Origin: an uncultured Chloroflexia bacterium
GTDB taxonomy: Bacteria > Chloroflexota > Anaerolineae > Anaerolineales > Anaerolineaceae
DNA: 32,000 nucleotides
Reading direction: 5' to 3'
Assembly (NCBI GenBank): GCA_963704755.1
Contig: OY969938.1
Location: 2,340,001 to 2,372,000, forward strand
Below are positions 11,207 through 25,693 of the stretch, piece by piece; within the stretch, counting starts at the first letter, position 1, and the number at the start of each line of letters is the position of its first letter. Position numbers and translations under genes: made by a program. The notes under the pieces were generated by a model. The model worked only from the letters and a program-made list of their open reading frames with translations, ran no database searches and was not told where the DNA came from.

Positions 11207-12492
11207 AATGCCATCCCTCGCGAAATTTGAACCAGGTCTTTCAACAAGGTCAACATGGAGACCTTCCCGGCCATCTCCTGGCGCAGCGCGCCATAGGCTT
11301 TCGATCCAGGCTCATTGGTGGGAGAGAACATGCGCTCCATCACACCGCAGGCCAGGTCGGGGTAGAGGCCGAACAGGCGCTCGTTCTCTAGCAGCGGATA
11401 CGCGTCTTTGAAGGTCACCCAATCCTTGTAAATCGAGGTTTGCTGGAGCAAGTCGGCGTAGCCGGCCAGGTCGGCGGCCAAATAGCTGCCCTTCTCGCGC
11501 GCAGCCAGGATCGCCTTCGCCGCGGCAGCCGCCGAGACGATGGCAAAATCCATCCCACGCAGAGTCACCACGTTGTTCAACACCAGCCGGGCCGCGCTGC
11601 CTGCCACGACGTACCCATCCCCGAATAACAGCGGGGTCAAATGTACGCCGCCGCGATGGACGGTCTGGGCCGAGTATTCCACTACCTCGCCGCCTTCGAC
11701 CAGGCGCGCTACCAGCGGGTGGGCTTTGAACGCGTCCAGCAGGGCATGCGGTTGGACCTTGCTCTTGTAGATCGAATTGATCTTGGCCACCACCCCGAGC
11801 GAAAGCGAAGCTTTGTTGGTGTAGAGGAACCCACCGCCCTCGATCCCCAAGGTGTGCCCGACCAGGGTGTACGCCATCCCGGTCTGCGGCGTGCACTGGA
11901 AACGCTCCTGGATGGTGCTTTCCGGCAGGGCAATCACCTCTTTCACCCCTAGCGAGACGTCGTGCGGCTGGGGGGCGTTGCTCAACCCGGCCTGGCGCAA
12001 CAGCAGCCCGCGCGTGCCTTCGGCGACCACCACCACGTCCGCCAGAATCTCATCCGGCCCGGCCTGGATGCCAACCACCCGGCCGTTCTCCATCTTGAGC
12101 GCATCCACCGTCACGCCGGTGATGACCGATGCCCCGGCGTCTTCGGCCTGCCCGGCCAGCCAGGGGTCGAAGGTGGCCCGCAGCACGCTGAAGGCGTTGT
12201 AGGGCGGTTTGGCCGAATCTCCGCTGCGGAAGTCCAGCGCCACAGAGGAATTTTCGCCCAGCATGACGATTTGGTGATTGGTGATGGCCCGCTCGACCGG
12301 TGCGCTGTTCCAGAACTCCGGGAAGATTTCGTTTACCGTCTGCGAGTAGATCAGCCCACCGGAGACGTTCTTGCTGCCCGCGTTCTCCCCGCGCTCGACC
12401 AGCAAGACGTTCATCCCGGCCCGGGCCAGGAGCGTCCCGGCCGTTGCGCCCGCCGGCCCTGCCCCGATGATGATTGCGTCAAATTTTTCCAT
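11203..12492 (-). CDS. fixC: FixC-type ETF:quinone oxidoreductase-like flavoprotein
   Basis: Begins MEKFDAIIIGAGPAGATAG. ATG 12492 has GAGG upstream and is preferred over the track's TTG at 12507. About 430 aa, followed directly by fixX. Confidence 0.85.
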   Translation of the reverse strand: MEKFDAIIIGAGPAGATAGTLLARAGMNVLLVERGENAGSKNVSGGLIYSQTVNEIFPEFWNSAPVERAITNHQIVMLGENSSVALDFRSGDSAKPPYNAFSVLRATFDPWLAGQAEDAGASVITGVTVDALKMENGRVVGIQAGPDEILADVVVVAEGTRGLLLRQAGLSNAPQPHDVSLGVKEVIALPESTIQERFQCTPQTGMAYTLVGHTLGIEGGGFLYTNKASLSLGVVAKINSIYKSKVQPHALLDAFKAHPLVARLVEGGEVVEYSAQTVHRGGVHLTPLLFGDGYVVAGSAARLVLNNVVTLRGMDFAIVSAAAAAKAILAAREKGSYLAADLAGYADLLQQTSIYKDWVTFKDAYPLLENERLFGLYPDLACGVMERMFSPTNEPGSKAYGALRQEMAGKVSMLTLLKDLVQISRGMAL

Positions 12493-12697: not shown

Positions 12698-13752
12698 TCA
12701 AGGGATAATGCAGGCCATCACACCCTTCTGGGCGTGCAGGCGGTTCTCCGCCTCGTGCCAGCAGGTGAGGCCGGCTTTGCCATCCAGGACGGCGTCGGAG
12801 ACCTCGGCGTTGCGCTCGCAGGGCAGGCAGTGCATATACCCGGCGGTCGGTTTGGCCATAGCCATGCGTTTCTCGTCGGCAATCCAGTTCTTGTACTTGG
12901 CGAACAGCTTGACCATCTCGTCCAACTGCGGTTCCTGGTGGTGACAGGCGGGAGCATATCGAGGCAGACGTAGTTCTTGGCATAGATCATGTCGGCATCC
13001 ACGAAAGCGTCGTCGAGGTTTTCGGAAACGGTGTAGGACCCGCCGTACAGCTCGCAGTTGGCCTTGATCGCGGCTTCGATTTCGGGGTCGATGCGCATTT
13101 CCGGCGGGCGCGAGAAGACGATGTCCGCGCCGTACAGGCTCGAGACGTACATGAAATCGTGGTGCGGGGCGATGGGTTTCTTGGGGGAGGAGCCCCAGGT
13201 CCAGGCGACGCCGATCTTGCGGCCCTTGAAGGAATAGCCGAAGCTCTCGCGCAGGGTCATCAGGTCTGCCATTCCCTGGCAGGGGTGATCCTTGTTGTCT
13301 TCCATGTTGATAATCGGCTTTTGCGACCATTTGGCGAACTCGCGGATGATCTTACCGCTTTTCTCGTAATCCCAATTGACCTTGTCGCCTAGAATACGGA
13401 TGGCGATGGCGTCGCCCATGGAGGAGAGCACGCGGGCCATATCGGAGATGCGCTCGGAGCCATAGCCAATGTCTTCGCCTTCCAGGGTAGGCAGGCGCGA
13501 GCCTTCGGGCTGCAGGAAATGGGCGTGGCCGCCGAACTGGAAGATGCCGGCCTCGAAGCTGTTGCGGGTGCGCAGGCTGGCGTTGAAGAACATCATGAAC
13601 AGGGTGCGCAGGGTCAGGACGTCGTCGTGGCGGCGGCGCATGGTGAAATCGGCCTTGAACTGCAGGCCCAGGTCGAGCATGGTGTCGATTTCCTCACGGG
13701 TAAAATCGCGTAAGCTGATGAAATCTCGGCCTTTCAAACCTTCGGTAATCAT
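12698..13752 (-). pseudogene. Carbamoyltransferase of the knotted YgeW/AOTCase/SOTCase-like type, frame broken by a 1-nt deficit near 12946-12953
   Basis: ORF 12718..13752 carries FFNASLRTRNSFEAG (S-x-R-T-R) and [10 protein letters not shown] (HPxQ), then turns to nonsense after ...[21 protein letters not shown] 12698..13330 in the next frame supplies the expected C-terminus ...[20 protein letters not shown]...[13 protein letters not shown]...[15 protein letters not shown] (HCLP motif). Length is 1055 nt, i.e. 3n+2. Confidence 0.75.
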
Positions 13753-13852
13753 ATGAGTATTGTTCCTTTCAGGTATTGTTGAAGCAAATTTGATTGGATC
13801 GGGGGTCAGGACAAGCGCCAGCGGGTCCAGTCATTCTCAAAATTGGGTCATC

Positions 13853-13870
13853 CCCGCCCGGACGGGCGGG
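13853..13870 (-). terminator. GC-rich hairpin after the KARI-like gene (terminator or attenuator candidate)
   Basis: CCCGCCC-GGAC-GGGCGGG lies 9 nt after the stop. On the minus strand it is followed by GATGACCCAATTTTGAG. Confidence 0.4.
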
Positions 13871-13878
13871 AGGTTTCC

Positions 13879-14871
13879 TTATTCTTCACTGCCGCCAAAA
13901 AGCTCGCGCCATTCCTGCCCGACCGTCTCCATGATGGACCGGGCCTCCGTGCGGCGCATACGGTACAGGTGCGGCATACCCAGCTTCCATTCTTCCATCC
14001 AGCGCGCGGCGAAATCACCGTGCTCGGTCTCTTGCAGGATCTTCTCGATCTCGGCGGTATCGATCACCCGCGGGCCGGCAGTGCGCACGGCAAACTCGCA
14101 AGTGCGGCTGCTGCGCGCGGAGATGTAGCCTTCGATGCCCACCTGGTCCATCACATCCACCACCGAGCGCAGCGAGCGGATGGCCTTGGCGTAGGCAAAG
14201 TGAGGCGGGTAACCGTGGGCGACCATGGCCTCGAAGACGGCGCGCATCAGGGCGATCGCCCCGCCGTAGAGCGCCTGCTCCTCGAAGTTATCGCCTTCCG
14301 TTTCCTGCTGGAAGTCGACTTCCACCACACCCACCCGCGTGCTGCCCACAGCCCTGGCCATGGCCAGCACGATCTCTTTGGCGTCGCCGGTCACGTCCTG
14401 TTCAACGGCAATCGCGCCGTAGACGCCCGAGCCTTGCAGGTACTTCTCGCGCACCAGGTGACCGGGCGAGTTGGGCACGAACAGCACCACATTGACGTCC
14501 CTGGGCGGCAGGATTGCCCCGTACAGTACGTTGAAACCGTGCGCAAAGCTGAGCGTGCTGCCCGGCTTCAGGTTGGGGCGGATTTCGGCCGCGTAGATTT
14601 CCGGCTGGGCCGGGTCGGACAGCAGCACGTGGACAATATCCGCGGCGCGAGTAGCCTCCGCGAAAGACATGACCTCGAAACCGTCCGCCACAGCTTTATC
14701 CCAGCCCGGGTGAAGGTCGCGCGGTCCGGAGCCGACGATCACCTTCAAACCGCTGTCGCGCATGCACTGCGCCTGCGGGCCGCCTTGAATGCCGTAGCCC
14801 AAGATGGCGATCGTTTTGTCCTTCAGTACGTCCAAACGGGCGTCTTCATCACGATAAACCTGGTTCAACAT
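13879..14871 (-). CDS. Ketol-acid reductoisomerase-like (class I KARI fold), divergent paralogue
   Basis: 330 aa, colinear with class I IlvC: KTIAILGYGIQGGPQAQ..., FAHGFNV, PNSPGHLVR, DFQQETEGDNFEEQALYGG. AGAGG RBS is present. Several family-invariant positions look substituted (see findings). Confidence 0.7.
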   Translation of the reverse strand: MLNQVYRDEDARLDVLKDKTIAILGYGIQGGPQAQCMRDSGLKVIVGSGPRDLHPGWDKAVADGFEVMSFAEATRAADIVHVLLSDPAQPEIYAAEIRPNLKPGSTLSFAHGFNVLYGAILPPRDVNVVLFVPNSPGHLVREKYLQGSGVYGAIAVEQDVTGDAKEIVLAMARAVGSTRVGVVEVDFQQETEGDNFEEQALYGGAIALMRAVFEAMVAHGYPPHFAYAKAIRSLRSVVDVMDQVGIEGYISARSSRTCEFAVRTAGPRVIDTAEIEKILQETEHGDFAARWMEEWKLGMPHLYRMRRTEARSIMETVGQEWRELFGGSEE

Positions 14872-14916
14872 TCCATACCTCTTTCTGCGTACAACCGACT
14901 GGTGATCACTGCGCCT

Positions 14917-15690
14917 TTACTCCAAGGAAGTTTTCTGCAACTGCCCGGAGCGGATCTCCAGGATTTCATTGCGCACCTGCTGGATGTGGGCCTGCATGGC
15001 ATCCGCCGCGGCTCCCGCATCGTGCGCTTCCAATGCCGCCAGGATGGCGCGGTGCTCGCCGGCCATCTTCACTGCCCGCCGGCCCAGGTACAGCATGGCC
15101 TGGTTGCTTTCACCAAAGGCCGGGATGAGGTGGCTGATGATTTCGTGGGCAATGTCATTGCCGCTCGAAGCGCTCACCGCCAGGTGAAACTGTGCGTCCA
15201 GCCTGGCCAGCGCTGCGAACCCGGAAGCCGGGTCTCCATCCAACTGCGGGTTGAGGCTATCCTGCCGGTCCAGGATGGCGCGCAGCTCATCCAGGGCAGC
15301 CGGGGTAATCACTTTCGCCGCCAACGACGCGGCCAGCATCTCAATCGATTCACGTACCTCGATGACCTGCTCGAGGGTCTCTTCACGCTCGGCCAGCCAA
15401 TGCAGCAGCTCTCCCTTACGGTCCTCTCGTACAGGCCGCGCAGAGATGAATGCTCCGGAGCCGCGGCGGATCTCGATCTGCCCCTCGGCTTCCAACACCC
15501 GCAGGGCTTCGCGGACCGAAGAGCGGCTGACGCCCAACTGGCGAGACAGCTCCTGTTCGGGGGGTAGTTTCTCGCCCACCGCCAGCGTGCCACTCGAGAT
15601 AAGTTCGCGAATTTGCTCAACCGCCTGTTCGAAAATCCGAACCGGGGCCAGTCTTTGCAGTTTTTGGATAGTTTCGCTGGATGAATCCAT
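14917..15690 (-). CDS. GntR-family transcriptional regulator, FadR subfamily (FCD effector domain)
   Basis: 257 aa with the winged-HTH pattern GEKLPPEQELSRQLGVSRSSVREALRVLEAEGQIEIRRGSGAFI, followed by an all-helical C-terminal domain. Confidence 0.85.
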   Translation of the reverse strand: MDSSSETIQKLQRLAPVRIFEQAVEQIRELISSGTLAVGEKLPPEQELSRQLGVSRSSVREALRVLEAEGQIEIRRGSGAFISARPVREDRKGELLHWLAEREETLEQVIEVRESIEMLAASLAAKVITPAALDELRAILDRQDSLNPQLDGDPASGFAALARLDAQFHLAVSASSGNDIAHEIISHLIPAFGESNQAMLYLGRRAVKMAGEHRAILAALEAHDAGAAADAMQAHIQQVRNEILEIRSGQLQKTSLE

Positions 15691-15740
15691 GATGATGATT
15701 GAAATGACGATCAGGTTGTCAGGTAGTCAGACAGATTTTT

Positions 15741-15754
15741 GGAAAAATTTTTCC
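15741..15754. promoter_or_regulatory. Perfect 14-bp palindrome GGAAAAATTTTTCC upstream of the FadR-type gntR gene; candidate operator, or the T-tract of the adjacent terminator
   Basis: Self-complementary over all 14 nt. It lies 51-64 nt upstream of ATG 15690 and directly downstream (minus strand) of the 15755-15782 hairpin. Confidence 0.3.
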
Positions 15755-15782
15755 CTGGGTTGGCCGTATGCGGCCAACCCAG
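15755..15782 (-). terminator. Terminator candidate after allE
   Basis: CTGGGTTGGCCG-TATG-CGGCCAACCCAG is a perfect 12-bp stem 14 nt after the stop. On the minus strand it is followed by GGAAAAATTTTTCCAAAAATC. Confidence 0.6.
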
Positions 15783-15795
15783 CGACAGAATTCGT

Positions 15796-16587
15796 TTACA
15801 TCCGGCTCGGATCGGTATAATCTCGGTTGACGTCCTTGTAGAGCAGGTAAGCCGACTTATCCCAACCGGTAGCGTAAAAGAACTGCGGGCAGAAAGGCGC
15901 CATATAGATAAAGTCATCCTTGCGGGTTTCGAGGAAATCGCCGTTCAGCCAATATACGCCGCGCCCGGCCAGCATATAGAGACCGTGCTCCATGATATGC
16001 GTCTCGACGTCGGAGAAATAGACACCCGGGTCGAAGACCTGCAGGTTGATGCCCATATCGAAGGCCAGGTCCTCGTAGGGGGTCAGGTGCTGCTCCATGT
16101 AGGTGTCGACCGGGTTGGCCACCACCTCAGATTCGTGGGACACAATCGGCTCAGGGATGGCAATCCCCTGCGTCTCGACGTAGCGCCGGCGGATCCACAC
16201 CAGGCGGGCATCCGCAGCGGTCGAATTCGTCATCTGGAACGGCCGCGAAGGTGGCAGCCAGCAGAAGCTGCCGCGCTCAAAAGTGTGCTTTTTTCCATCC
16301 AGCTCGAACTGCAAACCACCGTCCAAGACATATAAGAAATGTTCCCAGGATTTGTTCAAAGGCCGGGAAGTACCCCCGCCGGGCTGAACGACCAGCTCAT
16401 ACTGCACGAAACGCGCGCCAAGCTGCGGGGTCGCCAGCACCTGGGCCGCCGTATCCTTAAACCCAGGCAGGTAGCTGAACACCCGGTTAGACACCGGCAG
16501 GAGCGCATATATCCCCGGCTTGTTGATAGCCCGGCAGCGGGAGGTGATATCCGCATCATCGACGACCAGCATTTTTTCTTGTTTCAT
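15796..16587 (-). CDS. allE: (S)-ureidoglycine aminohydrolase (bicupin, AllE/YlbA type)
   Basis: 263 aa. IRRRYVETQG and ETHIMEHGLYMLAGRGVYWLNGDF...YIYMAP match my memory of E. coli AllE ([30 protein letters not shown]). GGAGAAG RBS is present. Confidence 0.75.
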   Translation of the reverse strand: MKQEKMLVVDDADITSRCRAINKPGIYALLPVSNRVFSYLPGFKDTAAQVLATPQLGARFVQYELVVQPGGGTSRPLNKSWEHFLYVLDGGLQFELDGKKHTFERGSFCWLPPSRPFQMTNSTAADARLVWIRRRYVETQGIAIPEPIVSHESEVVANPVDTYMEQHLTPYEDLAFDMGINLQVFDPGVYFSDVETHIMEHGLYMLAGRGVYWLNGDFLETRKDDFIYMAPFCPQFFYATGWDKSAYLLYKDVNRDYTDPSRM

Positions 16588-16632
16588 TTCACTTCTCCAT
16601 TGATCTTCCCGGCAAACCGGGGTTGACGCCCA

Positions 16633-18006
16633 TCAGAACCGGTAGGGATAGCTGCGCTTCAACAGCCGTCCAAAGCCGGGCTGGACTTTGATCTCGCTAT
16701 CCTGGTACACGGTGACACCCCGTACCAGAGTGCGCTCCACCTGCCCCTTGAAAGTGCAGCCCACGTAAGCGCTGTGCTTGTTCTTGTACAGCAGTTGATT
16801 CACAGAGAGCGCCCACTCTTTCTCCAGGTCAACCACCACCAGGTCGGCGTCCGCCCCGGGCAGGATGTCGCCCTTCTGTGGGTACAGCCCAAAGAGACGG
16901 GCCGGGTTGGCCGAAAGCAGCCGCACCAGCGTGGTCAGCGCAACGCCGCGCTCGTGGTAACCGGCAGTGAGCAACGCCGGCAGCATCTGTTGAATGCCGG
17001 AAATCCCGCCCCAGGCCTTCCAGATATCGTCCATGCCGGGGGCTTTCTCTTCCCAGGTGCAAGGGGAATGGTCCGAACCGATCGTGTCCACCAGGCCCGC
17101 CTTGACGCAGTCCCACATGTCCTCGACCGTCTCGCGCGAGCGGATCGGCGGTGCACACTTGGCGGCCGGGCCGATGCGCTCGAAATCCTGGTGATCGAAG
17201 AACAGGTAGTGCGGGCAGGTCTCAGCGGTCACGTGCACGCCGTCCGCCTTGTATTCCGCCACCGTCTCCAGCCCTTCCGGGATAGAGACATGCACAATGT
17301 GCAGGTTGCCGCAGGTCACGCCTGCCCAGTAGCAGGCGCGCCGCACCGCTTCGAGCTCCGCTTCCGGCGGGCGCGATTCGTACCAGCTCGCCCGGTCGGT
17401 GCGCCCTGCGGCGCGTAACTGCCTGCCCAGGTAGGCGGTGACGTCCTCGTTCTCGGCGTGCAGCCCGATCAGGTTACCGAGATCACCCGTCTTCAGCAAG
17501 CCGGCATAAATCAGGTCGTCCTTCAAACGCTCGAAATCCACACCGCTGTTGCTCATGAAGGCTTTGAAGCCGATCACGCCCTCGGCATTCATCCCGTCCA
17601 GCTCGTCCAGGTTGTTATCCACCAGGCCGCCCCATTGGGCGTAGTCCACCACCGCCTCCGAGCGCACAACCTCGCGTTTGGTGGCGAGCAGATCCTTGGT
17701 GATGGTGGGCGGGGTGGCATTGAGCGGCATCTCCAGCACACTGGTCACGCCCCCCGCCGCGGCGGCCATACTGCCGGTGCGGTAGCCTTCCCATTGGTCG
17801 CGGCCCGGCTGGTTGAAGTGCGCATGACCGTCCACGATCCCCGGCAGGAGCAGCTTTCCACCCAGGTCGACGACTTCGCGAGCATCCACCTGGATATCGT
17901 TTGACATTATTTCAGCAATCTTGCCATCCTGGACGACCACGCCGCCCGGGAAAACCGCCGATTCGGTCACGACCAATGCGTTTTTGAGATAAAGATCTGC
18001 GCTCAT
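16633..18006 (-). CDS. allB: Allantoinase (cyclic amidohydrolase, AllB type)
   Basis: 457 aa with DGHAHFNQPGRDQWEGYRTGSMAAAAGGVTSVLEMPLN, GFKAFM, GLHAEN, HIVHVS, GSDHSPC and KAWGGISGIQ. These closely parallel remembered E. coli AllB motifs (EPGRSHWEGYETG..GGITTMIEMPLN; KAWGGIAGLQ). Confidence 0.8.
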   Translation of the reverse strand: MSADLYLKNALVVTESAVFPGGVVVQDGKIAEIMSNDIQVDAREVVDLGGKLLLPGIVDGHAHFNQPGRDQWEGYRTGSMAAAAGGVTSVLEMPLNATPPTITKDLLATKREVVRSEAVVDYAQWGGLVDNNLDELDGMNAEGVIGFKAFMSNSGVDFERLKDDLIYAGLLKTGDLGNLIGLHAENEDVTAYLGRQLRAAGRTDRASWYESRPPEAELEAVRRACYWAGVTCGNLHIVHVSIPEGLETVAEYKADGVHVTAETCPHYLFFDHQDFERIGPAAKCAPPIRSRETVEDMWDCVKAGLVDTIGSDHSPCTWEEKAPGMDDIWKAWGGISGIQQMLPALLTAGYHERGVALTTLVRLLSANPARLFGLYPQKGDILPGADADLVVVDLEKEWALSVNQLLYKNKHSAYVGCTFKGQVERTLVRGVTVYQDSEIKVQPGFGRLLKRSYPYRF

Positions 18007-18029
18007 ACCTGGGCCTTCTAAGAAAAGTT

Positions 18030-18096
18030 GTACCTGCTCAACCGGACGGGCAAAAAAAAAACCTGGGGCTTTTTACCCGACGCCTGAGCAGGTACG
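18030..18096. repeat. Family copy D: outer inverted repeats only (GTACCTGCTCA / TGAGCAGGTAC), enclosing an A10 tract
   Basis: The 11-bp perfect inverted repeat resembles the outer repeats of copies E and F (GTAACTACTCA / TGAGTAGTTAC). It lies between the arcC stop and the allB start. Confidence 0.55.
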
Positions 18097-18106
18097 AAAA
18101 GTCGAT

Positions 18107-19054
18107 TTATGGCACGATCCAGGTGCCCGTCTCGCCGATTAACGCACGGGAGATGTTTTCCGGGTTGGTAATGAGAGCCTGCTTGCCACCGGCTTCCATA
18201 AAGCGCAGGATGGCCTGGACCTTGGGCAGCATGGAACCCTTGGCGAAGTGGCCCTCCGCCATGTACTGGCGAGCCTCAGCCACCGTCATGCGGTCCAGCC
18301 ATTTTTGGTCAGGCTTATTGAAGTTGATGGCCACCTTTTCGACCGCGGTGGAGATGACGAACAGGTCGGCATGGATCAGGTTGGCCAGCACCGAGGAACC
18401 GAAATCCTTGTCGATGACTGCCTCGACCCCGGTTAGGTCGCCGTTCTCCAGCTCGACCACCGGGATGCCGCCGCCGCCCACACCCACCACAGTAAACCCA
18501 CCCTGGATCAGGCATTGGATGGCCGGCGCTTCCACGATTTTGATCGGGATGGGAGAGGCCACCACTCGCCGCCAGCCGCGGCCGGCATCTTCTACCACTA
18601 CCCAGCCATCTTCCGACTGGCGCTTCCTGGCCTCGGCCTCGCTCATGAACGAGCCAATCGGCTTGGTCGGGTTCTGGAAGGCCTTGTCGCTGCGGTCTAC
18701 GATGGTCTGGGTGACCACCGCCGCGACCGGCTTCTGGATCCCGCGCAGGCGGAACTCGTTGTTCAAAGCCTGCTCGAACATGTAACCAATCGAGCCCTGG
18801 CTGTCTGCACCGCAGTAATCCAGGGGCACTTCATGCAGCTCTTTCTGCGAGAGCTCTGAGCGGCGCAGGATGAACCCGACCTGCGGACCGTTGCCATGCG
18901 TCACGACCACGTCCCAACCCTGCTGGATCATGTCCGCGATGTGGTGCATCGATTCGCACGCCGCCGCATACTGGTCCCTGATCGTCTTGTGCTGTCCATC
19001 TTTGATCAACGAATTGCCGCCGACGGCAACTACTGCTACACCTTTACTGGTCAT
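18107..19054 (-). CDS. arcC: Carbamate kinase
   Basis: Begins MTSKGVAVVAVGGNSL...VVTHGNGPQVG, with ...GGGIPV... later. ATG 19054 (AAAGGA 10 nt upstream) is preferred over the track's TTG at 19063. Confidence 0.85.
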   Translation of the reverse strand: MTSKGVAVVAVGGNSLIKDGQHKTIRDQYAAACESMHHIADMIQQGWDVVVTHGNGPQVGFILRRSELSQKELHEVPLDYCGADSQGSIGYMFEQALNNEFRLRGIQKPVAAVVTQTIVDRSDKAFQNPTKPIGSFMSEAEARKRQSEDGWVVVEDAGRGWRRVVASPIPIKIVEAPAIQCLIQGGFTVVGVGGGGIPVVELENGDLTGVEAVIDKDFGSSVLANLIHADLFVISTAVEKVAINFNKPDQKWLDRMTVAEARQYMAEGHFAKGSMLPKVQAILRFMEAGGKQALITNPENISRALIGETGTWIVP

Positions 19055-19098
19055 TCTGATCAATCCTTTAATGGTTTAGTTTGAGCCGGGCGCGGCGA

Positions 19099-20101
19099 TC
19101 AGACGCCCAGAATACTGGCGACCAGCGCCATGCGAATGGATACCGAATAAGCGATCGCCTCGAAATAGAGCTGGTGAGGGGTGTTGTCGATGCGTAGGTC
19201 CATCTCGCCGGCCCGGCGCGGCAGGGTATGGGTGATGTAAATCGTGCGGTTCTCGTCCTCGTGCACCTTCTTGAGGGTGTCGTAGCGCACATAGTAGTTA
19301 TCCATCACCTTCTTGAAGGCCTCCGCCTCAGGACCTTTCGGCGCGCTGCAGCCGGGCAGATAGACCATGTCCATACCCGCGACCAGCTCGTTGAAGCTAT
19401 CCTGGGTCAGGTCGAACTCCTCAGTGACGTTATCGCCGAAGCGGGATAGTATTTCCATTACCTCGGCCGGCGTGCGGCGCGACTTCTGCGTCGCCAGGGT
19501 CACTTTGGCGCCTAGACGGGCCAGCCCCTGGGCCATCGAATGCCCGGTGCGGGCCTCGACCAGGTCAGCGCTGGCCACGCACACCTTCAGGCCTTCGATC
19601 TTGCCGTAGGTACGATAGAGTGTGTACAGGTCGAGCAGGGCCTGGGTCGGGTGCTCCCAGTGGCCCCAGCCGGCGTTGATGACAGAAGCTTCCGAGCAGG
19701 GTACGGCTTCGCGCACTTCCACGTCGTTCGGGTGGCGAATCACAATCAGGTTGGCGTACTTCGAGACCACCCGCAGCATGTCCGCCAGGCTCTCCTCTTT
19801 GGCCGCCGAGGAGGTGACCATCGGATTGGCTTCACTGATCACCGCACCGCCCAGGCGCTGCATGGCGGTCTCGAAGCTCATGCGCGTGCGGGTGCTGGGC
19901 TGGAAGAAGAGGGTGGACATGACGTTGCCGGTCACGAGCTCGATGCGCGAGCGGTTCCAGGGTTCCAATAAGCGGCCAAGTTCGAACAGGGCGTAAATCT
20001 GTGCATCCGATAGATCATTGATCGAGTGCAGGCTGTGGCCTTCAAAATCGATTTCACGGACGATAGATCGGATCGATTTTAATTTTGCTTGCGTTTTCCA
20101 T
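19099..20101 (-). CDS. ATCase-fold carbamoyltransferase paralogue; ATG and first ~9 codons are out of frame with the body (1 extra nt near 20070-20085)
   Basis: The body carries FFQPSTRTRMSFE (STRTR), HWEHPTQALLD (HPxQ) and ITHTLPRR (HxLP). The frame stays open and family-like upstream of the track's TTG 19968 (..GHSLHSINDLSDAQIYALFELGRLLEP) but holds no ATG/GTG/TTG. An ATG at 20101 with AGGAGA 5 nt upstream lies in the adjacent frame and stops after 15 codons. The span is 1003 nt, i.e. 3n+1. Confidence 0.75.
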
Positions 20102-20159
20102 GCGTTCTCCTGGGTGAAAGGAAATTTGAGTTCAATGAATTCGAGCCGTTCTGTTCGAA

Positions 20160-21680
20160 TCAGCCCTTGCAGGCGCCGTTGACCCAGCGGTTCATGCCCA
20201 CGTCGCGCGCCGCGGCGCGCAGGTACATCTCACGGTAATAGGGCTCGAGCTGGCTGGCGGCGGCAGCGTTCTTGTCCAACTCCAGCTTGTAGGACTGCAT
20301 CAATTCGCGCGCCTCAGCTTTGATCGCCTCTTCATCGACGGTCAGGATGCGCCCGTCCTCGACCACGACCTGGCCGGCGACCATGGTCATGCGCACCGAG
20401 CTGCCGTTTTCGCAGTACACCAACTGGCGGTAGATATCGTTCAGCGGGGTAAATGCCAGGGTGTTCAGGTCCAGCAGGATCAGGTCGGCCTCATAACCCG
20501 GGGCAAGCACGCCCACCCGGCCCTCGTTGCGCATGGCGTGCGCTCCCCCGCGGGTCAGCGCCCAGAGGATCTCCGGTGCTTTGGGCCAGATGCGATAATC
20601 CGGGTTCGTGATGGAATGGATCAGGCCGGCCACCTTGCCGACCCCCCACATATTGGCCGTATCGTCGGTGCAGCCCTCGTCACTGCCCATGCAGAGCGGG
20701 ATGCCATGATCGCGCATGCGGCGCCAGGTCATCACCCCGCTGCCCAGGCGCAGGTTGCAGAGTGGGTTATGGGCGATCGAGCAGCCGGCCTCGGCGATCA
20801 GGTCCACGTCCTCGTCGTCCACCCAGATGGCATGGATGATCATCATGCGCTCGTCGAGCAACCCCAGGTCATGCACGTACTTGACCAGCGACTTGCCGTA
20901 TTTCTCCTCGCCCAAGACCCGTTGGAGCTTGGTCTCGAGAATGTGCACGTCGAAGGGCAGGTCGTACTGCTTGCTGAGGTCGGAAAGCGCCGCGAAGTAA
21001 TCGACTGTGACGCGTTGCGGAGCCGAAACGGACACGGCCGCGCAGACCCGTCCTTCATAGGACTTGTGCCACTTCGTGAGCAGGTACTTGTAACAATCCA
21101 GCAGCTCGTCCTTTTTGTTGAGCGGCGCCACTTCCATCTGCTTGCGTAAATTTTCGGGCAGGATCTCTTTGAGGAAGGGGTATTTATCGTATTCGACCAC
21201 GTTGGGCTGGTCGATGGTCGCCGCCACACGGATGCCGCTGTCGGCGTAGGATTGCATCAGGCCATCGATCGCGTCCGGGGTGGGATAGGGGACATAAAAC
21301 GCGTCGTCATGCACGGCGGTGACACCCAGTTTGAGCATTTCGATGTTGCTCAGCATGGTCCGCACGTAGTTCAGGCGGTAATCCGGCGGGTTTTCGCTGA
21401 GCGGGGGCACCTCGTACAGCATGAAAATTTCCAGGGGCAGGTTATCCAGGGCGCCTTTGCTGAAATTTCCGGGTGAGTGGATGTGTCCGTTGACCAGGCC
21501 GGGCATGGCCAGCTTGCCGGAGGCGTCGATGACCCGCAGCGCTTCCCCGCTTTCCGGAACCGGAATGTCTTTACCGACCGCCACGATCCGGGTACCCTGG
21601 ACGAGGATATCCCCACACTCGATCTCGGTCATCTGGTCATCCATGGTCAGGATGCGTGCATTTTTTATCAAGGTTGCCAT
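20160..21680 (-). CDS. Amidohydrolase-superfamily deaminase/hydrolase (TRZ/ATZ, SsnA, cytosine- or guanine-deaminase-like)
   Basis: 506 aa with PGLVNGHIHSP (HxH), FDVHILET (HxxE), IIHAIW and MGSDEG. GGAG RBS is present. Substrate cannot be assigned from sequence alone. Confidence 0.75.
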   Translation of the reverse strand: MATLIKNARILTMDDQMTEIECGDILVQGTRIVAVGKDIPVPESGEALRVIDASGKLAMPGLVNGHIHSPGNFSKGALDNLPLEIFMLYEVPPLSENPPDYRLNYVRTMLSNIEMLKLGVTAVHDDAFYVPYPTPDAIDGLMQSYADSGIRVAATIDQPNVVEYDKYPFLKEILPENLRKQMEVAPLNKKDELLDCYKYLLTKWHKSYEGRVCAAVSVSAPQRVTVDYFAALSDLSKQYDLPFDVHILETKLQRVLGEEKYGKSLVKYVHDLGLLDERMMIIHAIWVDDEDVDLIAEAGCSIAHNPLCNLRLGSGVMTWRRMRDHGIPLCMGSDEGCTDDTANMWGVGKVAGLIHSITNPDYRIWPKAPEILWALTRGGAHAMRNEGRVGVLAPGYEADLILLDLNTLAFTPLNDIYRQLVYCENGSSVRMTMVAGQVVVEDGRILTVDEEAIKAEARELMQSYKLELDKNAAAASQLEPYYREMYLRAAARDVGMNRWVNGACKG

Positions 21681-21708
21681 TATTAATCTCCAATAATCGA
21701 GCAGCTAC

Positions 21709-22455
21709 TCAATCGCGGTACGGCCGGCTAAAAATTGGGAGCAGGCCGGGCAGCTCGACCCGTTTTGGCTGCAGGTAAGCTCGTTTTTTGCTGGTGTGCA
21801 GGCCGTAACTGCCGAGGCCTTCCATCAGTTTCAGGGCAGCCACGACACCATCCACCACCGGCACGCCCAGCTCGGCTTCCAGTTGCTTGTCCATGCCGGA
21901 CATGCCCGCACAGCCCAGGCAAATCACTTCGGCGCCATCCTTCTCGATGGCATCTTGCGAAGATTTGAGGATGACCTGGTAGGTCTCCGTGGGGCTGAGG
22001 GCTTCCAGCGCCAGCACGGGAAGGCGGGTGGAGCGCACGGAGGCGCAGCGATCGGCCACCCCAAAATGGCGGACCGCGTCCCACAGCAGCGGCTCCCAGG
22101 CCTCATCGGTGGTCACAATGCTGAACTTGTGGCCCACCATGCAGGCGAAATACACGGACGCTTCGCAAATGCCAATCGCCGGCTTATCCGAAATTTCACG
22201 CAGCGCGTAGACCGTGGGGTGGTCGCTGACGCAGGCGATCACGAAGGCATCGTACTTGTCCATCTGGCTGATCGCCAGTTCCAGGGTAGGGGTGGCGCTC
22301 ATCAATTCGTCGTAGATGCACTCGATCGAGCGCGGCCCGGCGCTTGGATTGCAGGCTAGCGCCTGCGTCGCCGGCGCGGCATATCGATCGATCGTCTCCT
22401 GCAGCCGGCGGGTGAATTCTTCTGTAGTGTTGGGGTTGATAAAGAGGATACGCAT
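21709..22455 (-). CDS. Asp/Glu/hydantoin racemase-family protein (hydantoin or allantoin racemase-like)
   Basis: 248 aa beginning MRILFINPNTT, with two Cys-containing segments (AFVIACVSDH; VICLGCAGMSG) as expected for two-base racemases of this family. Confidence 0.75.
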   Translation of the reverse strand: MRILFINPNTTEEFTRRLQETIDRYAAPATQALACNPSAGPRSIECIYDELMSATPTLELAISQMDKYDAFVIACVSDHPTVYALREISDKPAIGICEASVYFACMVGHKFSIVTTDEAWEPLLWDAVRHFGVADRCASVRSTRLPVLALEALSPTETYQVILKSSQDAIEKDGAEVICLGCAGMSGMDKQLEAELGVPVVDGVVAALKLMEGLGSYGLHTSKKRAYLQPKRVELPGLLPIFSRPYRD

Positions 22456-22497
22456 AACTTTTTCCTGTTCGTCAGGCTGCGAATGAAGCGCCTGTTC

Positions 22498-23277
22498 TCA
22501 AATTCCGAACTCTTTCTCGATGACCCGTACAATCCCTTCGGTGACCGCATCCAGAATGCGCTCGCCCTTTTCTTTGCTGGCGCGGGTAGCCTTCCAGAAG
22601 ACGCCAGATTCTGGCGCGCCATCCTTTGGAGTGGGCAACACGTCGTAATCGAAGGGCTGGGGCGGCCTGCCGTCCACGATGAGATCCTCATGTACCAGCT
22701 CCGGATAGGCTGCCAGCATGGCGGAGGTTTCCCAGATCGCGGCATGCTCTACTGCCCAGCCGGGGAAATCCGCGCCAAACAGGTCTTCCATCAGGCCCGG
22801 CTGGGTGCTGACGCCCAGGCCGTTGGGGTTGTCGATCTTGACGATCTTCAGGTCGTCCCCACAGCCGCAGGCGCGCACGGCTTCGTCCACCCCTTCGAAC
22901 ACGAAGGGCACGTTTTCCAGGTGCCAGTCCAGGACGACGATGCGCCGCCAACCCTGCTGGATGAACTGGCCGACGATCTCTGACACCATGCTGATGACCG
23001 TCGCGCCTTTCAGGCCGATGCTGCCGGGAAAATACGGTCCCCCGCCGGCGCGCAGGAGCGATTTATAGCCATATGTGCAGCCCGGGGCGACCACACCGTT
23101 CACCCGCCTGGCAACCCGCTCGGCAATCGCCAGGGGCAGGTAAAAGTCCACCCCGGTGGGCAGGTGCGGTCCGTGCTGCTCGACGGACCCAACCACAAAC
23201 AGCAGCACGCGTTGATCGATTGCGGCCTGCTTCAATTCAGGCCAGGTCATTTTCAGCCATAAGACATTTGACGGCAT
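22498..23277 (-). CDS. Creatininase-family metal amidohydrolase (creatinine amidohydrolase / formamide hydrolase-like)
   Basis: Carries VGSVEQHGPHLPTGVD.., a family signature. ATG 23277 (GGGAG 8 nt upstream) is preferred. The track's TTG 23301 would overlap the upstream stop as TTGA. Confidence 0.75.
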   Translation of the reverse strand: MPSNVLWLKMTWPELKQAAIDQRVLLFVVGSVEQHGPHLPTGVDFYLPLAIAERVARRVNGVVAPGCTYGYKSLLRAGGGPYFPGSIGLKGATVISMVSEIVGQFIQQGWRRIVVLDWHLENVPFVFEGVDEAVRACGCGDDLKIVKIDNPNGLGVSTQPGLMEDLFGADFPGWAVEHAAIWETSAMLAAYPELVHEDLIVDGRPPQPFDYDVLPTPKDGAPESGVFWKATRASKEKGERILDAVTEGIVRVIEKEFGI

Positions 23278-23297
23278 CGAATTGCTCCCTTGTTCTT

Positions 23298-24674
23298 TCA
23301 ATCAAGCCGGGCGAAAACTGGGTTCGGATCCCGGCGAATAAATTTTCCATCTCCCGGCCGGCCGAGCACCCTGCCCCGCTCGGCGGCAATCTGTCCGCGC
23401 AGGATGGTGTAGAGCACCCGCCCTGCCAGCGTTTTGCCCTCATACGGGATCCAGCCGCATGAGGTATTCATCTCCGCAGCGTGGAGTGTATGGCTTTCGG
23501 AAAGGCTTACCACGGTGAAATCCGCATCCGCCCCGACCTGGATCGCGCCTTTGCGCGGGTACAGCCCGTAGATTTGGGCGGGCATTTCAGCCGTCAGTGC
23601 CGCCAGGCGGGCCAGCGAGATCCAGCCCTTTGCCGCAGCGTTGAGCATCAACGGAATGAAGGTTTCCGCTTCCGGGATGCCAATATGGACCTTCAAAATG
23701 TCGGCCTCATCGGCCTTTTTCAACTGCGGGTCGATCGGGCCGGGGTCGGAGCCCATCAGGTCGATACTGCCCTGTGCGAGCTGCTGCCAGAGCGCGTCCA
23801 CGCGCTGCCGGTCATGGATAGGCGGGGCGTAGACCACCCAGGGCCCCTGAGCTTGCAGGTCGGAGTGGTCCAGGTACAAGTTGTGCGGGCAGGTCTCCAC
23901 CCAGACGTCCACTCCCTCCCGGCGCGCCTGGTGAACCATCGCTACGCCTTCGGGAATGGTGGTGTGTAGAATGACGGCGCGCGCGCCGGTTCCGCGCAGA
24001 AGGAAAAGCGCGCGGTGGATCGCTTCCGCTTCGGCTTCCGGCGTGTGCCATTCGACAAACGCCATGGGGTCTGTACGCCGGGCAGCGGCCAGCCGGCGGT
24101 AATTGGCGCGCAGCATGGCCTCGTTCTCGGCGTGCAGCATCACCGTCCCGCCGAAGCTGCCAATCTTGCGGAAGGCGGCGAGCAACTGGCCGTCGTCCAG
24201 GCCGTTGACCCTGGTCCCCGATTCGCACATGAAAATCTTGAAGGCCGTGGCGCCGGCTTCCCACAGCGCCGGGAGCTGGTCCAGGTTCTGATCGCTCACC
24301 CCGGCGTGCAGGGCGAAATCGGTGTAGGCGGTCGCTTCTCCCAGGACCCGTTTTTGCTCAAAAACGTTTACATCCAAAACCTCGGGCGGGCTAAGCGGTT
24401 GGTCGATGATGGTGGTGACCCCACCCGCAAGCGACGCGCGTGTGCCATCTTTAAAGTCCGGGCCGGCCAGCATACCCGGCTCCCACAGGTGCTGGTGCGG
24501 GTCGATGCAGCCCGGCAGGATGTGACAGCCGGCGAGCGAAAGCCGCTCTCGGGCAGGGCGGCCGGCCAGGCTGCCGGCAATGCTGGCGATTTTCCCATCC
24601 CTGACACCGATATCTGCCCGGTACTCGCCGCGCGGGATGACCACGATCCCATCCTGAAGAATCAGATCGAACAT
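23298..24674 (-). CDS. Cyclic amidohydrolase (dihydroorotase/hydantoinase/dihydropyrimidinase-like), second copy in the cluster
   Basis: 458 aa. All metal-ligand positions look present: CIDPHQH (HxH), AFKIFM (Lys), MLHAEN, VILHTT, GSDPGP (Asp). Confidence 0.75.
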   Translation of the reverse strand: MFDLILQDGIVVIPRGEYRADIGVRDGKIASIAGSLAGRPARERLSLAGCHILPGCIDPHQHLWEPGMLAGPDFKDGTRASLAGGVTTIIDQPLSPPEVLDVNVFEQKRVLGEATAYTDFALHAGVSDQNLDQLPALWEAGATAFKIFMCESGTRVNGLDDGQLLAAFRKIGSFGGTVMLHAENEAMLRANYRRLAAARRTDPMAFVEWHTPEAEAEAIHRALFLLRGTGARAVILHTTIPEGVAMVHQARREGVDVWVETCPHNLYLDHSDLQAQGPWVVYAPPIHDRQRVDALWQQLAQGSIDLMGSDPGPIDPQLKKADEADILKVHIGIPEAETFIPLMLNAAAKGWISLARLAALTAEMPAQIYGLYPRKGAIQVGADADFTVVSLSESHTLHAAEMNTSCGWIPYEGKTLAGRVLYTILRGQIAAERGRVLGRPGDGKFIRRDPNPVFARLD

Positions 24675-24748: not shown

Positions 24749-25687
24749 TCAACCGCCGCTGGTCTGGACCTGGGCCTCCAATGCGCCCAACCGCTCCCGG
24801 GCTTTGGAAGCCGGGATGGTGAACATGTGATTCAGCCCAAAATCCTGGACGGCGAACGAAGCCGAGACCGCCCCCGCCAGGCCGGCCCGTACCAGGTCTC
24901 CGCTGCGCACGTACATGGCCATAAAACCGCCGCAGAAGGTATCGCCTGCGCCGGTCGTATCCAGGGTGTTCGCCGGGTAGATCGGAATCCTGTGAAAGCT
25001 ATCCAGGCGCGCATCGTAGATCAGGCAGCCTTCCTGGCCCAGCTTGATGACCACCGCGCTGGGACCGTATCCGGCGAACTGGCGGCAGGCCTTTGCAAAA
25101 TCGCGGTGGCCGAGCAGCAGGAAGACTTCCTCCTGGCTGGGCATAAAAATATCGACGTGTTTGAGCAGGTCCAGGATGCGCTGCTCGTTACCGGGGATAT
25201 ACTCTTCCTGCGGGTCGAGGGCGAGTGTGCCGCGCTCCCGCAGCGCCGGCGCGAGGGCTTCCTGCGCAGCCAGGTCCATGGCCAGCACCAGGAAAGCGCG
25301 CGCAGCGAGATAATCTTCCGGGATATCGGACATCCGTGGAGAGAGCTCGAAGAAATCGCCGCCATTGCTCAACATGACCCAGGTGCGCTGGTTGTTGTTG
25401 GCGTAGGTCACCCGGTAATGGACCCCAGGGATCGAGCGCCGGGGCAGGCCGCGCGTTTCCAGACTGGAGCGGTTGAGACTGGCGAGGTTTTCCTCGGGGT
25501 AATCCGCGCCGACCGGGGCCACAAAGCGCACCGAATCAGACCACCAATGCGCACCCAGGGTGGCGTAGATGGTATCTCCCCCGAAACAATTCAAGCAAGT
25601 CGTTCCATCCGGGAGGACCACGTCGTCGATGGAAAGATTACCGAGGCAAACTAGGTCAAATGGCATAATCAACAGGCTCCGATCCAA
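24749..25687 (-). CDS. PfkB-family (ribokinase-like) sugar/nucleoside kinase
   Basis: N-terminus reads FDLVCLGNLSIDDV, and the C-terminal anion-hole motif DTTGAGDTFCGGF is present. The start is either TTG 25687 or, perhaps more likely, ATG 25666 (GGAG upstream). Confidence 0.8.
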   Translation of the reverse strand: MDRSLLIMPFDLVCLGNLSIDDVVLPDGTTCLNCFGGDTIYATLGAHWWSDSVRFVAPVGADYPEENLASLNRSSLETRGLPRRSIPGVHYRVTYANNNQRTWVMLSNGGDFFELSPRMSDIPEDYLAARAFLVLAMDLAAQEALAPALRERGTLALDPQEEYIPGNEQRILDLLKHVDIFMPSQEEVFLLLGHRDFAKACRQFAGYGPSAVVIKLGQEGCLIYDARLDSFHRIPIYPANTLDTTGAGDTFCGGFMAMYVRSGDLVRAGLAGAVSASFAVQDFGLNHMFTIPASKARERLGALEAQVQTSGG

Positions 25688-25693
25688 TAACCT

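Follow-up and report, generated by a model that had tools for sequence, protein, structure and literature searches.

How might allantoin be degraded through a gene cluster that encodes enzymes for the allantoin ring, a carbamate kinase and two different transcarbamoylases, with no allC, allD or oxamate transcarbamoylase (OXTCase)-type gene among them? This question is raised by a 32,000-nt stretch of an uncultured Chloroflexia bacterium of the Anaerolineaceae (GenBank assembly GCA_963704755.1, contig OY969938.1, positions 2,340,001 to 2,372,000), which is referred to as the window and from whose first letter all positions are counted. Allantoin and other ureides are major nitrogen-rich plant and animal products, and energy gain from ureides by strict anaerobes outside the enterobacteria is, to our knowledge, poorly known. 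The answer that we favour, with slightly better than even confidence, is that the island belongs to a type of cluster, common in Anaerolineae, that conserves energy from the breakdown of allantoin, and in which both ureido groups would be converted to carbamoyl phosphate and the C2 unit to glycine.

Gene content of the cluster

From about 30132 down to 7899, the genes of the window follow one another on the minus strand without a break. Profile searches with Pfam and with NCBIfam at its curated cutoffs covered the open reading frames (ORFs) of 4166-31358 and revealed an allantoin racemase-like gene of the Asp/Glu/hydantoin racemase family (21709..22455, Pfam E 6e-59; best solved relative allantoin racemase 5lfd, E 1e-44), the allantoinase gene allB (16633..18006; TIGR03178, 509 bits against a cutoff of 358), a bicupin (S)-ureidoglycine aminohydrolase (15796..16587; TIGR03214, 257 against 200) and a carbamate kinase (18107..19063; TIGR00746, 386 against 358; NF009007, 419 against 266). 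The same strand encodes an aspartate transcarbamoylase (ATCase)-like protein, termed TC1 (19099..20101), and a knotted transcarbamoylase with OTCace_N and OTCace domains that resembles N-acetylornithine transcarbamoylase (AOTCase), termed TC2 (12698..13752), both genes being frameshifted in the window. To these are added a gene related to ketol-acid reductoisomerase (KARI; 13879..14871) and, from profile searches, a block at 7899-12507 for a DAO-family flavoprotein, the electron transfer flavoprotein (ETF) subunits EtfA and EtfB, FixX and FixC.

The first-pass annotation, made from the sequence alone, had proposed a ureide island at 12698-24674. Its genes were found at or near the positions given, all on the minus strand, and its family calls held in the profile searches; its left boundary did not, the conserved unit reaching down to 7899. 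Among the scanned ORFs of 4166-31358, neither an M20-type AllC, an Ldh_2-type AllD nor an FdrA/YlbE/YlbF domain was detected, nor was a xanthine dehydrogenase or YgeX/YgeY domain, in agreement with the absence of allC, allD, OXTCase-type, xanthine dehydrogenase, ygeX and ygeY genes that had been reported for the island. The assignment of the Escherichia coli OXTCase to FdrA/YlbE/YlbF (AllFGH), also given there, is correct (PMC11326118).

Assignment of TC1 and the replacement of AllC

In Rubrobacter xylanophilus, the 'pseudo-ATCase' Rxyl_2847 is flanked by allantoinase and carbamate kinase (Barba 2013, PMC4016543). Supplied with arsenate or phosphate, it converts allantoate to ureidoglycine and carbamoyl phosphate and thereby stands in for allantoate amidohydrolase (PMC4016543); as ureidoglycine carbamoyltransferase (UGTCase), it replaces AllC (reviewed in PMC4581275). 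Its reference sequence, Q1AS69, was taken from the supplementary alignment of PMC4016543. TC1 was found to be 68% identical to Q1AS69 over 311 aa and 50% identical to the Clostridium ljungdahlii member of the UGTCase group (D8GTE4), against 33-35% to three genuine ATCases and 28% to the Nocardioides pseudo-ATCase. On the curated ATCase model TIGR00670 it scored 211, below the cutoff of 237.

The motifs conform with this assignment. Both carbamoyl phosphate motifs, STRT (as FFQPSTRTR) and HPTQ (as EHPTQ), are present by the definitions in Table 1 of PMC4016543, and at the acceptor side TC1 carries THTLPR where ATCase has HP[LG]P and PGCSAPKG where ATCase has RxQ. The resulting combination of H(T/S)LP and GX[SC] is the UGTCase signature; the authors' tree labels Q1AS69 'HTLP' (PMC4016543), and the review agrees (PMC4581275). 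A reading of HTLP as the motif of the Nocardioides subgroup was considered and rejected, since the tree labels and the 2015 review both assign HTLP to the Rubrobacter UGTCase. The proposed ureidoglycine-binding residues (ARTGHS, GCSAPKG and HTLP) are all in place in TC1, and HTLPR together with GCSAPKG was recovered in 27 of 28 TC1 orthologs of related loci. The gene order TC1, carbamate kinase, AllB in the window is the same in most related loci.

By sequence, we conclude that TC1 is an ortholog of the Rubrobacter UGTCase. With this level of identity (68%), the puzzle of the missing AllC is removed, and its answer was already in the literature: the core of allantoinase, ATCase-like transcarbamoylase and carbamate kinase was described, with enzyme assays, in 2013 (PMC4016543), so that the first-pass statement of knowing no described pathway with such a combination does not stand.

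Conservation of the cluster across genomes

Homologs are abundant for TC1 and TC2 alike, each with over 120 clusters of at least 71% identity, most of which bear the name Anaerolineae. A neighbourhood scan with one genome per species yielded 80 loci (numbered with the prefix L), 46 of which have a TC2 at least 60% identical to that of the window. These 46 derive from Anaerolineae, Ardenticatenales, Promineifilaceae, Acidimicrobiia, Thermoleophilia, Armatimonadota, Spirochaetota and one Promethearchaeota bin. The window proteins were mapped onto all 46 loci, of which 25 have full flanks.

The archetypal order was determined to be TC1, carbamate kinase, AllB, (M20), ureidoglycine aminohydrolase, KARI, (Trx9), TC2, FixC, FixX, EtfB, EtfA, DAO and racemase, the proteins in brackets being optional, and the cluster order recurs in most of the 46 loci, in Chloroflexota, Actinomycetota, Armatimonadota and Spirochaetota. 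On a Bellilinea contig, racemase, TC1, allantoinase, cupin, KARI, Trx9, TC2, FixC, FixX, EtfB, EtfA, DAO and carbamate kinase all run in one direction. Within the 25 full-flank loci, the ureidoglycine aminohydrolase was present in 21, DAO in 20, TC1 in 19, ETF in 19, the KARI-like gene in 17, FixC in 16, AllB in 14 and carbamate kinase in 13; the racemase was found in 17 of the 46. In 31 of 32 DAO-positive loci, DAO comes after TC2, either directly (mostly with a gap of 80-130 nt) or after FixCX-EtfBA or EtfBA, and DAO is always accompanied by the KARI paralogue or ETF (both in 15 loci, ETF only in five, KARI only in four). Since this gene order is recurrent in dozens of species, the island is a real unit and not a chance juxtaposition, and its description as a ureide-catabolic unit organised around carbamoyl phosphate is upheld.

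To find recurrent families, 368 unassigned ORFs of the 46 loci were clustered. Recurrent neighbours were a Liv-type ABC transporter, a cytosine-deaminase-like amidohydrolase (13 loci) and a CDA-fold deaminase (seven loci). An M20 deacylase resembling ArgE, DapE and YgeY lies between AllB and the ureidoglycine aminohydrolase in 15 loci (within L006-L035, for example L013 6819-8087) and is absent from the window; in these related clusters, one ureido group may be removed by hydrolysis through it instead. In 11 loci, glycine cleavage genes (gcvT, gcvH, gcvPA and gcvPB, above curated cutoffs) follow the cluster immediately downstream and in the same direction. They lie between TC2 and carbamate kinase in L034, and in L029 gcvT directly follows TC2; counted over loci that have DAO and at least 3 kb past the last core gene, gcv genes were present in 8 of 20.

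A reduced form of the module was seen in the spirochaetal locus L048 (9995-16143), where TC2 (61%), carbamate kinase, a nitroreductase, EtfB, EtfA, DAO and a TRAP transporter follow one another in this order. This seven-gene module is without TC1, allantoinase, cupin and KARI, and its EtfA has an N-terminal ferredoxin domain; the nitroreductase, ferredoxin-domain and TRAP labels were given by eye.

TC2, by sequence a knotted transcarbamoylase

TC2 remained below cutoff on every curated model: AOTCase (NF003384, 239 against 288), ornithine transcarbamoylase (OTCase, 194 against 281), PTCase (181 against 500) and the YgeW models NF005538 (95 against 453) and TIGR03316 (90 against 500). Its best solved relative is the Xanthomonas AOTCase (E 1e-53). 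The first-pass label 'YgeW/AOTCase-like' is therefore kept for its second part; a YgeW-type enzyme was rejected on the score of 95 bits against 453 and on length, the relatives of TC2 having 350 aa compared with about 396 aa.

Alignment in AOTCase numbering showed the carbamoyl phosphate site of TC2 to be kept (S-x-R-T, R112, HPxQ, HCLP and R322). The Glu/Lys pair common to knotted transcarbamoylases, E144 and K252, has its counterparts in E151 and K259 of TC2, and the proline-rich loop that marks the knotted fold is present. The specificity of AOTCase resides in Glu92, Asn185 and Lys302, plus Trp77 of the 80s loop (PMC4581275). All four are changed in TC2: Trp77 to Leu (L87), Glu92 to Ser (S99) together with a three-residue deletion in the 80s loop, Asn185 to Lys (K192) and Lys302 to Glu (E317). 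The 80s loop of TC2, RLPTLEGED, is invariant among close relatives. An AlphaFold2 model from an alignment of 10 sequences (72-91% identity) was poor, with a mean pLDDT of 52.8. As judged from its sequence features, TC2 is a knotted transcarbamoylase of no described specificity, which bears out the earlier expectation that at least one transcarbamoylase of the island would be of unassigned specificity. In the characterised knotted-clade members AOTCase, SOTCase and YgeW, the acceptor or leaving group is in each case an sp3 primary amine (PMC4581275; bioRxiv 10.1101/2025.04.24.650524), and YgeW cleaves 2,3-diureidopropanoate (bioRxiv 10.1101/2025.04.24.650524).

Two other settings of TC2-like genes were noted in the scan. 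At L045 (6338-9437), a TC2 homolog (64%) stands beside an isochorismatase-family hydrolase, a polysaccharide-deacetylase protein and AtuA-like and adenine-deaminase-like proteins, with no TC1; the polysaccharide-deacetylase family includes PuuE-type allantoinase. A more distant TC2-like clade (L051-L084, 44-48% identical) occurs in Eisenbacteria, Caldisericota and Heimdall/Hodarchaeota and adjoins carbamate kinase in 22 of 34 loci (for example L057 and L080). In L057, the neighbours resemble XdhC, a xanthine dehydrogenase FAD subunit and adenine deaminase, as labelled by eye, and the clade looks like another uncharacterised family of catabolic transcarbamoylases in purine contexts.

Redox module

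The gene at 7899..9104 (-) encodes a DAO-family FAD oxidoreductase of the sarcosine/dimethylglycine/glycine oxidase-like type (Pfam DAO, E 1e-58), whose best solved relatives are dimethylglycine dehydrogenase, the beta subunit of sarcosine oxidase and glycine oxidase. All three enzymes oxidise the C-N bond of glycine or of N-substituted glycines. In the related loci, the DAO gene is without exception linked to TC2. Upstream follow, on the same strand, EtfA/FixB (ETF alpha, 9125..10096; Pfam ETF and ETF_alpha), whose position is conserved across related loci, and EtfB/FixA (ETF beta, 10100..10897; Pfam ETF). The top five solved relatives of EtfB are all bifurcating or confurcating (CarD, 4kpu, 7koe, 5ol2 and LctB), non-bifurcating ETFs ranking lower. 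The module continues with a FixX-type ferredoxin-like protein (10910..11206, -; 4Fe-4S and Fer4_ETF_QO domains) and a FixC-type ETF-quinone oxidoreductase (11203..12492, -). The latter has FixC of the Thermotoga EtfABCX complex as best solved relative (7koe_C, E 2e-70) and scored 385 and 360 bits on the YdiS/FixC subfamily models of NCBIfam, both below cutoff.

The KARI-like gene (13879..14871, -) encodes an NAD(P)-dependent oxidoreductase with KARI_N and KARI_C domains and exceeds the cutoff of TIGR00465 (292 against 226). Its canonical AYFEtxxEL motif reads AYAKaiRSL, by which two Mg-ligand glutamates are replaced with K and S. The isomeroreductase reaction of IlvC needs four acidic Mg2+ ligands (D, E, E, E), and the loss of two Mg2+-binding glutamates thus makes it unlikely that the paralogue is an acetolactate isomeroreductase. 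The change AYAKxIRSL was recovered in 21 of 27 cluster-linked KARI copies (60-79% identical), the pattern search being empty in the other six. Going by the motif, the paralogue is probably a plain NAD(P)-linked oxidoreductase for a 2-hydroxy/2-oxo acid or an imine.

Accessory hydrolase genes

Three further minus-strand genes of the window encode amidohydrolases. A creatininase-family amidohydrolase (22498..23301; TIGR04448, 263 against 235) recurs in L037 only among the related loci, as does a second cyclic amidohydrolase of the allantoinase/hydantoinase/dihydropyrimidinase-like type (23298..24674; 48% identity), which stays below cutoff on TIGR03178 (335 against 358) and on the D-hydantoinase model (293 against 393). 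A TRZ/ATZ-family amidohydrolase/deaminase (20160..21680; Amidohydro_1 and Amidohydro_3) lies under all NCBIfam cutoffs and has close orthologs in L030 and L037 only. Because they occur in at most two of the 46 loci (L030 and L037), the three genes are regarded as accessory; they may feed creatinine- or hydantoin-type rings to the TC2/flavoprotein pair. Of the substitutes for missing steps that had been put forward at first pass, the KARI-like gene and the DAO/ETF module are thus found in the conserved core and these three hydrolases are not.

Frameshifts in the transcarbamoylase genes

Neither transcarbamoylase gene is an intact ORF in the window sequence, which the first-pass annotation had not noticed. 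TC1 starts with the ATG at 20101, preceded by AGGAGA, and reads MENASKIK (eight codons) before a stop, with the body of the protein in the next frame; the shift is explained by a single additional base at 20076-20080, and the longest clean ORF is 19099-19968. The relatives of TC1 are intact at 333 aa and read MEN..KIK(S/T)IRS.V. In TC2, the frame switches at about 12934-12936, and the HCLP motif and the C-terminus lie in the other frame. A tblastn search with the Bellilinea TC2 ortholog gave a match in two pieces, the first (residues 1-271) at 13752-12940 and the second (residues 273-350), in another frame, at 12934-12701. From comparison with the DNA of relatives, which are intact at 350 aa, the shift is most simply explained by two extra bases, ACC ACC A[GG]AA CCG.

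The truncated products, of 289 aa and 344 aa, are found in exactly this form in the public protein collection, both from one contig, which implies that the shifts are present in the deposited genome. Programmed frameshifting at these sites was rejected, as no slippery motif was seen and the relatives are intact. About 20 other genes of the window, and a 1399-aa frame at 3-4199, are intact. A Dps/ferritin-like gene (6058-6623, +) is split over two frames, which change at about 6240-6290, near TTAAAACCC; with it the window has a third frameshift, which hints at assembly indel errors or at further pseudogenes. With three indels in 32 kb, assembly error is plausible, yet it is notable that two of the three hit transcarbamoylases. 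The pathway may be inactive in the source genome unless the transcarbamoylase frameshifts are assembly errors.

Proposed pathway

In the route that we propose, allantoin would be converted to allantoate by the racemase and allantoinase. TC1, in AllC's place, would then cleave allantoate with phosphate to (S)-ureidoglycine along with carbamoyl phosphate, from which carbamate kinase would form ATP with ADP, and the cupin aminohydrolase would convert ureidoglycine to (S)-ureidoglycolate and ammonia. These predicted steps of racemase, AllB, TC1, carbamate kinase and cupin are supported by homology to characterised enzymes. The remaining ureido-C2 unit would be taken by the module of TC2, DAO flavoprotein, EtfAB/FixCX and degenerate KARI, which would transfer the second carbamoyl group to phosphate. 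Most likely, ureidoglycolate would be reduced to N-carbamoylglycine, TC2 would split this by phosphorolysis into glycine and carbamoyl phosphate, and glycine would enter the glycine cleavage system that is encoded adjacently in related genomes.

The substrate of TC2 could be N-carbamoylglycine, ureidoglycolate or oxalurate. N-carbamoylglycine is favoured because the characterised knotted transcarbamoylases use sp3 primary amines, because the partner flavoprotein of TC2 resembles enzymes that act on N-substituted glycines, and because glycine cleavage genes are linked to the cluster. Oxidation of the C-N bond of N-carbamoylglycine followed by hydration gives ureidoglycolate, so that the reverse reaction would join the two halves of the pathway, and bifurcating-type Etf systems typically drive such high-potential reductions. 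The accessory creatinine- and hydantoin-type genes also favour this substrate, since they would supply N-carbamoylsarcosine or N-carbamoylglycine to the TC2/flavoprotein pair.

Several points weigh against this proposal. The TC2 substrate is read from gene context, and one reduction step needs one oxidoreductase, where two (DAO/ETF and the KARI-like protein) are conserved. FixCX suggests that electrons go to quinone, which would fit an oxidative step at least equally well. There are no gcv genes in the 32-kb window, and the gcv linkage, seen in Chloroflexota only, could in part be a matter of common descent. Some TC2 homologs (64-68% identical, L040-L045) stand without any other cluster gene. 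The frameshifts in both transcarbamoylase genes of the window count on the same side.

A bolder version of the proposal, which we put forward only tentatively and regard as doubtful, is a fermentation of allantoin to glycine with two substrate-level phosphorylations that would be widespread in Anaerolineae of sediments and digesters. TC2 would here be an N-carbamoylglycine (hydantoate)/glycine carbamoyltransferase, maybe acting on N-carbamoylsarcosine too, and DAO with the bifurcating-type EtfAB, with or without FixCX, would constitute a new ureidoglycolate reductase with flavin-based electron bifurcation.

Alternative explanations

The FixC of the island, a homolog of ETF-quinone oxidoreductase, would suit an oxidative branch to oxamate, an idea that goes back to the first-pass annotation. 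Ureidoglycolate or ureidoglycine would be oxidised to oxalurate by the KARI-like protein, whose parent chemistry is 2-hydroxy/2-oxo-acid redox, and/or by DAO via ETF/FixCX to quinone, and TC2 would split oxalurate into oxamate and carbamoyl phosphate. This would match the logic of AllD, OXTCase and carbamate kinase in Streptococcus allantoicus and E. coli (PMC11326118, PMC9843812), and non-enterobacterial OXTCase genes are unknown. We nevertheless hold this branch to be unlikely. Oxamate is an amide, while all characterised enzymes of the transcarbamoylase fold use an amine; in E. coli the reaction required an unrelated enzyme of three subunits, and YgeW showed no OXTCase activity. The relatives of DAO act on C-N bonds in derivatives of glycine, the branch leaves the linkage to glycine cleavage unexplained, and one oxidoreductase would again suffice.

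Alternatively, TC2 could act directly on (S)-ureidoglycolate or ureidoglycine, giving carbamoyl phosphate and an unstable hydroxyglycine or iminoacetate. The latter would be reduced to glycine by the flavoprotein and EtfAB, or decay to glyoxylate and ammonia, with the KARI-like protein reducing glyoxylate. The tight adjacency of TC2 and DAO would suit the hand-over of such a labile product; iminoacetate is the product of glycine oxidase, glycine oxidases are among the DAO relatives, and the gcv linkage fits glycine as the end product. Locus L038, which has TC1, TC2 and DAO/ETF and neither aminohydrolase nor KARI within reach, is also consistent with it. There is, on the other side, no precedent for a transcarbamoylase acting on a carbinolamide, and L048, with its lack of a ureidoglycolate source, suggests a stable, imported N-carbamoyl acid as the substrate. 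Direct cleavage is considered quite unlikely.

We judge it improbable that TC2, DAO and ETF form a separate, merely co-located pathway, in which N-carbamoylsarcosine (from creatinine via N-methylhydantoin) or another N-carbamoyl amino acid would be split by phosphorolysis and the freed amino acid oxidised through ETF. Such a pathway would account for the equivalog-level creatininase, the hydantoinase-like hydrolase and the deaminase-type amidohydrolase of the window, for the resemblance of DAO to dimethylglycine and sarcosine dehydrogenases, which hand electrons to ETF and ETF-QO, for the module standing alone in L048, and for the recurrence of CodA-like and CDA-fold deaminases in relatives. 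The creatinine-type genes, however, are as rare as given above (at most 2 of 46 loci), and in the full-flank loci with TC2 the order is fixed, with TC1 in 19 of 25 and the ureidoglycine aminohydrolase in 21 of 25.

That the two transcarbamoylases are ordinary biosynthetic PyrB and ArgF paralogues near ureide genes by chance is hardly credible and already contradicted: public annotations do say aspartate, ornithine or N-acetylornithine carbamoyltransferase, but both proteins lie below all curated ATCase, OTCase and AOTCase cutoffs, the RxQ and HPxP motifs of ATCase and Glu92, Asn185 and Lys302 of AOTCase are absent, and they stand in fixed synteny with catabolic genes and carbamate kinase in different phyla. 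Neither of the two findings that the first-pass annotation had named as speaking against its island, biosynthetic PyrB/ArgF membership of both enzymes and a gene order conserved in no relative, was obtained: both enzymes are below all curated cutoffs, and the order recurs in most of the 46 species loci.

Comparison with known systems

The proposed pathway shares with the Rubrobacter xylanophilus route (allantoinase Rxyl_2845, UGTCase Rxyl_2847 and carbamate kinase Rxyl_2848; PMC4016543) the replacement of AllC by an ATP-yielding phosphorolysis, and in both clusters the TC1-type enzyme adjoins allantoinase and carbamate kinase. The Rubrobacter cluster further has uricase, HIU hydrolase, OHCU decarboxylase, asparaginase-like and glyoxylate-to-glycerate genes (PMC4016543), whereas the window is without urate-oxidation genes. 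The Rubrobacter cluster lists no second transcarbamoylase, DAO/ETF/FixCX or KARI paralogue, and the window adds the cupin ureidoglycine aminohydrolase.

With the oxamate branch of E. coli and Streptococcus allantoicus (AllD, AllFGH, AllK; PMC11326118, PMC9843812), the proposed pathway shares the AllB- and AllE-type steps and the formation of ATP from carbamoyl phosphate. The window ORFs, in contrast, are without AllC, AllD and AllFGH, the carbamoyl phosphate-forming enzymes are of the classical transcarbamoylase fold, and potentially two carbamoyl phosphates would be formed per allantoin instead of one.

The YgeW/YqeA system of the 2,8-dioxopurine pathway in gut anaerobes (bioRxiv 10.1101/2025.04.24.650524) likewise couples a knotted catabolic transcarbamoylase, which takes one ureido group off a diureido acid, to carbamate kinase for ATP formation, and the recurrence of a YgeY-like M20 hydrolase in relatives of the island is a further likeness. 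TC2 differs from YgeW in score, in length (350 aa against 396 aa) and in its partners, with no Xdh, YgfK, SsnA, HyuA or YgeX, which implies that the substrate must differ.

The Xanthomonas campestris AOTCase (PDB 3kzc and others) and TC2 have the carbamoyl phosphate site, the loop rich in proline and the E144/K252 pair in common; TC2 departs from it in the changed specificity residues, in the invariant RLPTLEGED loop and in its catabolic context, as opposed to arginine biosynthesis. Combinations of a flavoprotein, of DAO fold or acyl-CoA-dehydrogenase type, with EtfAB and a FixCX-type quinone reductase are likewise found in dimethylglycine/sarcosine dehydrogenase with ETF/ETF-QO, in EtfABCX/FixABCX and in the Bcd-, CarC- and LctD-EtfAB systems, whereas the partner in the island is a stand-alone DAO domain of 383-401 aa encoded beside a transcarbamoylase. 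The arginine and agmatine deiminase pathways, with catabolic OTCase or PTCase and carbamate kinase, follow the same logic, in which a ureido compound and phosphate yield an amine and carbamoyl phosphate and thereby ATP; they use other substrates and other transcarbamoylase clades, and in the proposed pathway two transcarbamoylases would act together.

A literature search found no link between KARI and ureidoglycolate, no transcarbamoylase for N-carbamoylglycine or N-carbamoylsarcosine and no report on allantoin metabolism in Anaerolineae; nor did it find a description of a second transcarbamoylase of the TC2 clade, of its constant pairing with DAO/Etf/FixCX and a degenerate KARI, or of its link to glycine cleavage. 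The first half of the pathway is the Rubrobacter UGTCase route of 2013, and the module of TC2, DAO flavoprotein, EtfAB/FixCX and KARI paralogue appears to be undescribed. The little-noticed UGTCase route is widespread in Chloroflexota and Actinomycetota, where it is usually paired with a second transcarbamoylase tied to a flavoprotein/ETF module and often to glycine cleavage. Should this module act as proposed, it would represent a new transcarbamoylase substrate specificity, possibly a new electron-bifurcating enzyme, and a pathway yielding two ATP per allantoin. Thousands of database entries that now bear the names aspartate, ornithine or N-acetylornithine carbamoyltransferase or ketol-acid reductoisomerase would also be corrected.

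Regulatory and flanking features of the window

A transcriptional regulator with GntR and FCD domains is encoded within the cluster (14917..15690, -); L012 and L026 have it at the same place, and in L050 it lies just upstream of TC2. TC2 and fixC are separated by a gap of 190 nt with two strong hairpins, a perfect palindrome with a 20-bp stem at 12559-12605 and a stem of 13 bp at 12649-12678, which may be a terminator, an attenuator, an operon boundary or a repeat element dividing the island into two transcription units. Rfam gave no match anywhere in the window.

Upstream of the cluster, at 24749..30132 on the same strand, lie genes for a PfkB kinase, a 281-aa protein, a metallophosphoesterase, an APC-family permease and a GntR/HutC regulator, which may be part of the island. 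The PfkB gene is also found in L026. The permease, the metallophosphoesterase and the 281-aa protein (25694-29251), the last without a Pfam or NCBIfam match, recur at 4397-8073 of L016 ('Chloroflexi bacterium RBG_16_57_11'); there the trio adjoins a second TC2 copy, which suggests a further TC2-linked function.

At the left end of the window, a stop-free minus-strand frame at 3-4199 (1399 aa) with hydrophobic stretches runs past the window edge. It had no Pfam match at 1e-5 and is a very large protein of unknown family; the view that positions 1-4100 are full of frameshifts was rejected in favour of this single long open frame off the window edge. The downstream edge of the island (5000-8000) is ORF-poor and has a GC content of 46-48%, compared with about 60% elsewhere. 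Directly downstream of this low-GC border, 4166-5248 (-) encodes a 360-aa protein with weak, sub-threshold matches to universal stress proteins. A repeat search of 1-8000 revealed two hairpins only, at 5492-5544 and 7056-7110 (26-nt arms), and a small membrane protein, labelled GlsB/YeaQ-like by eye, is encoded at 7157-7429.

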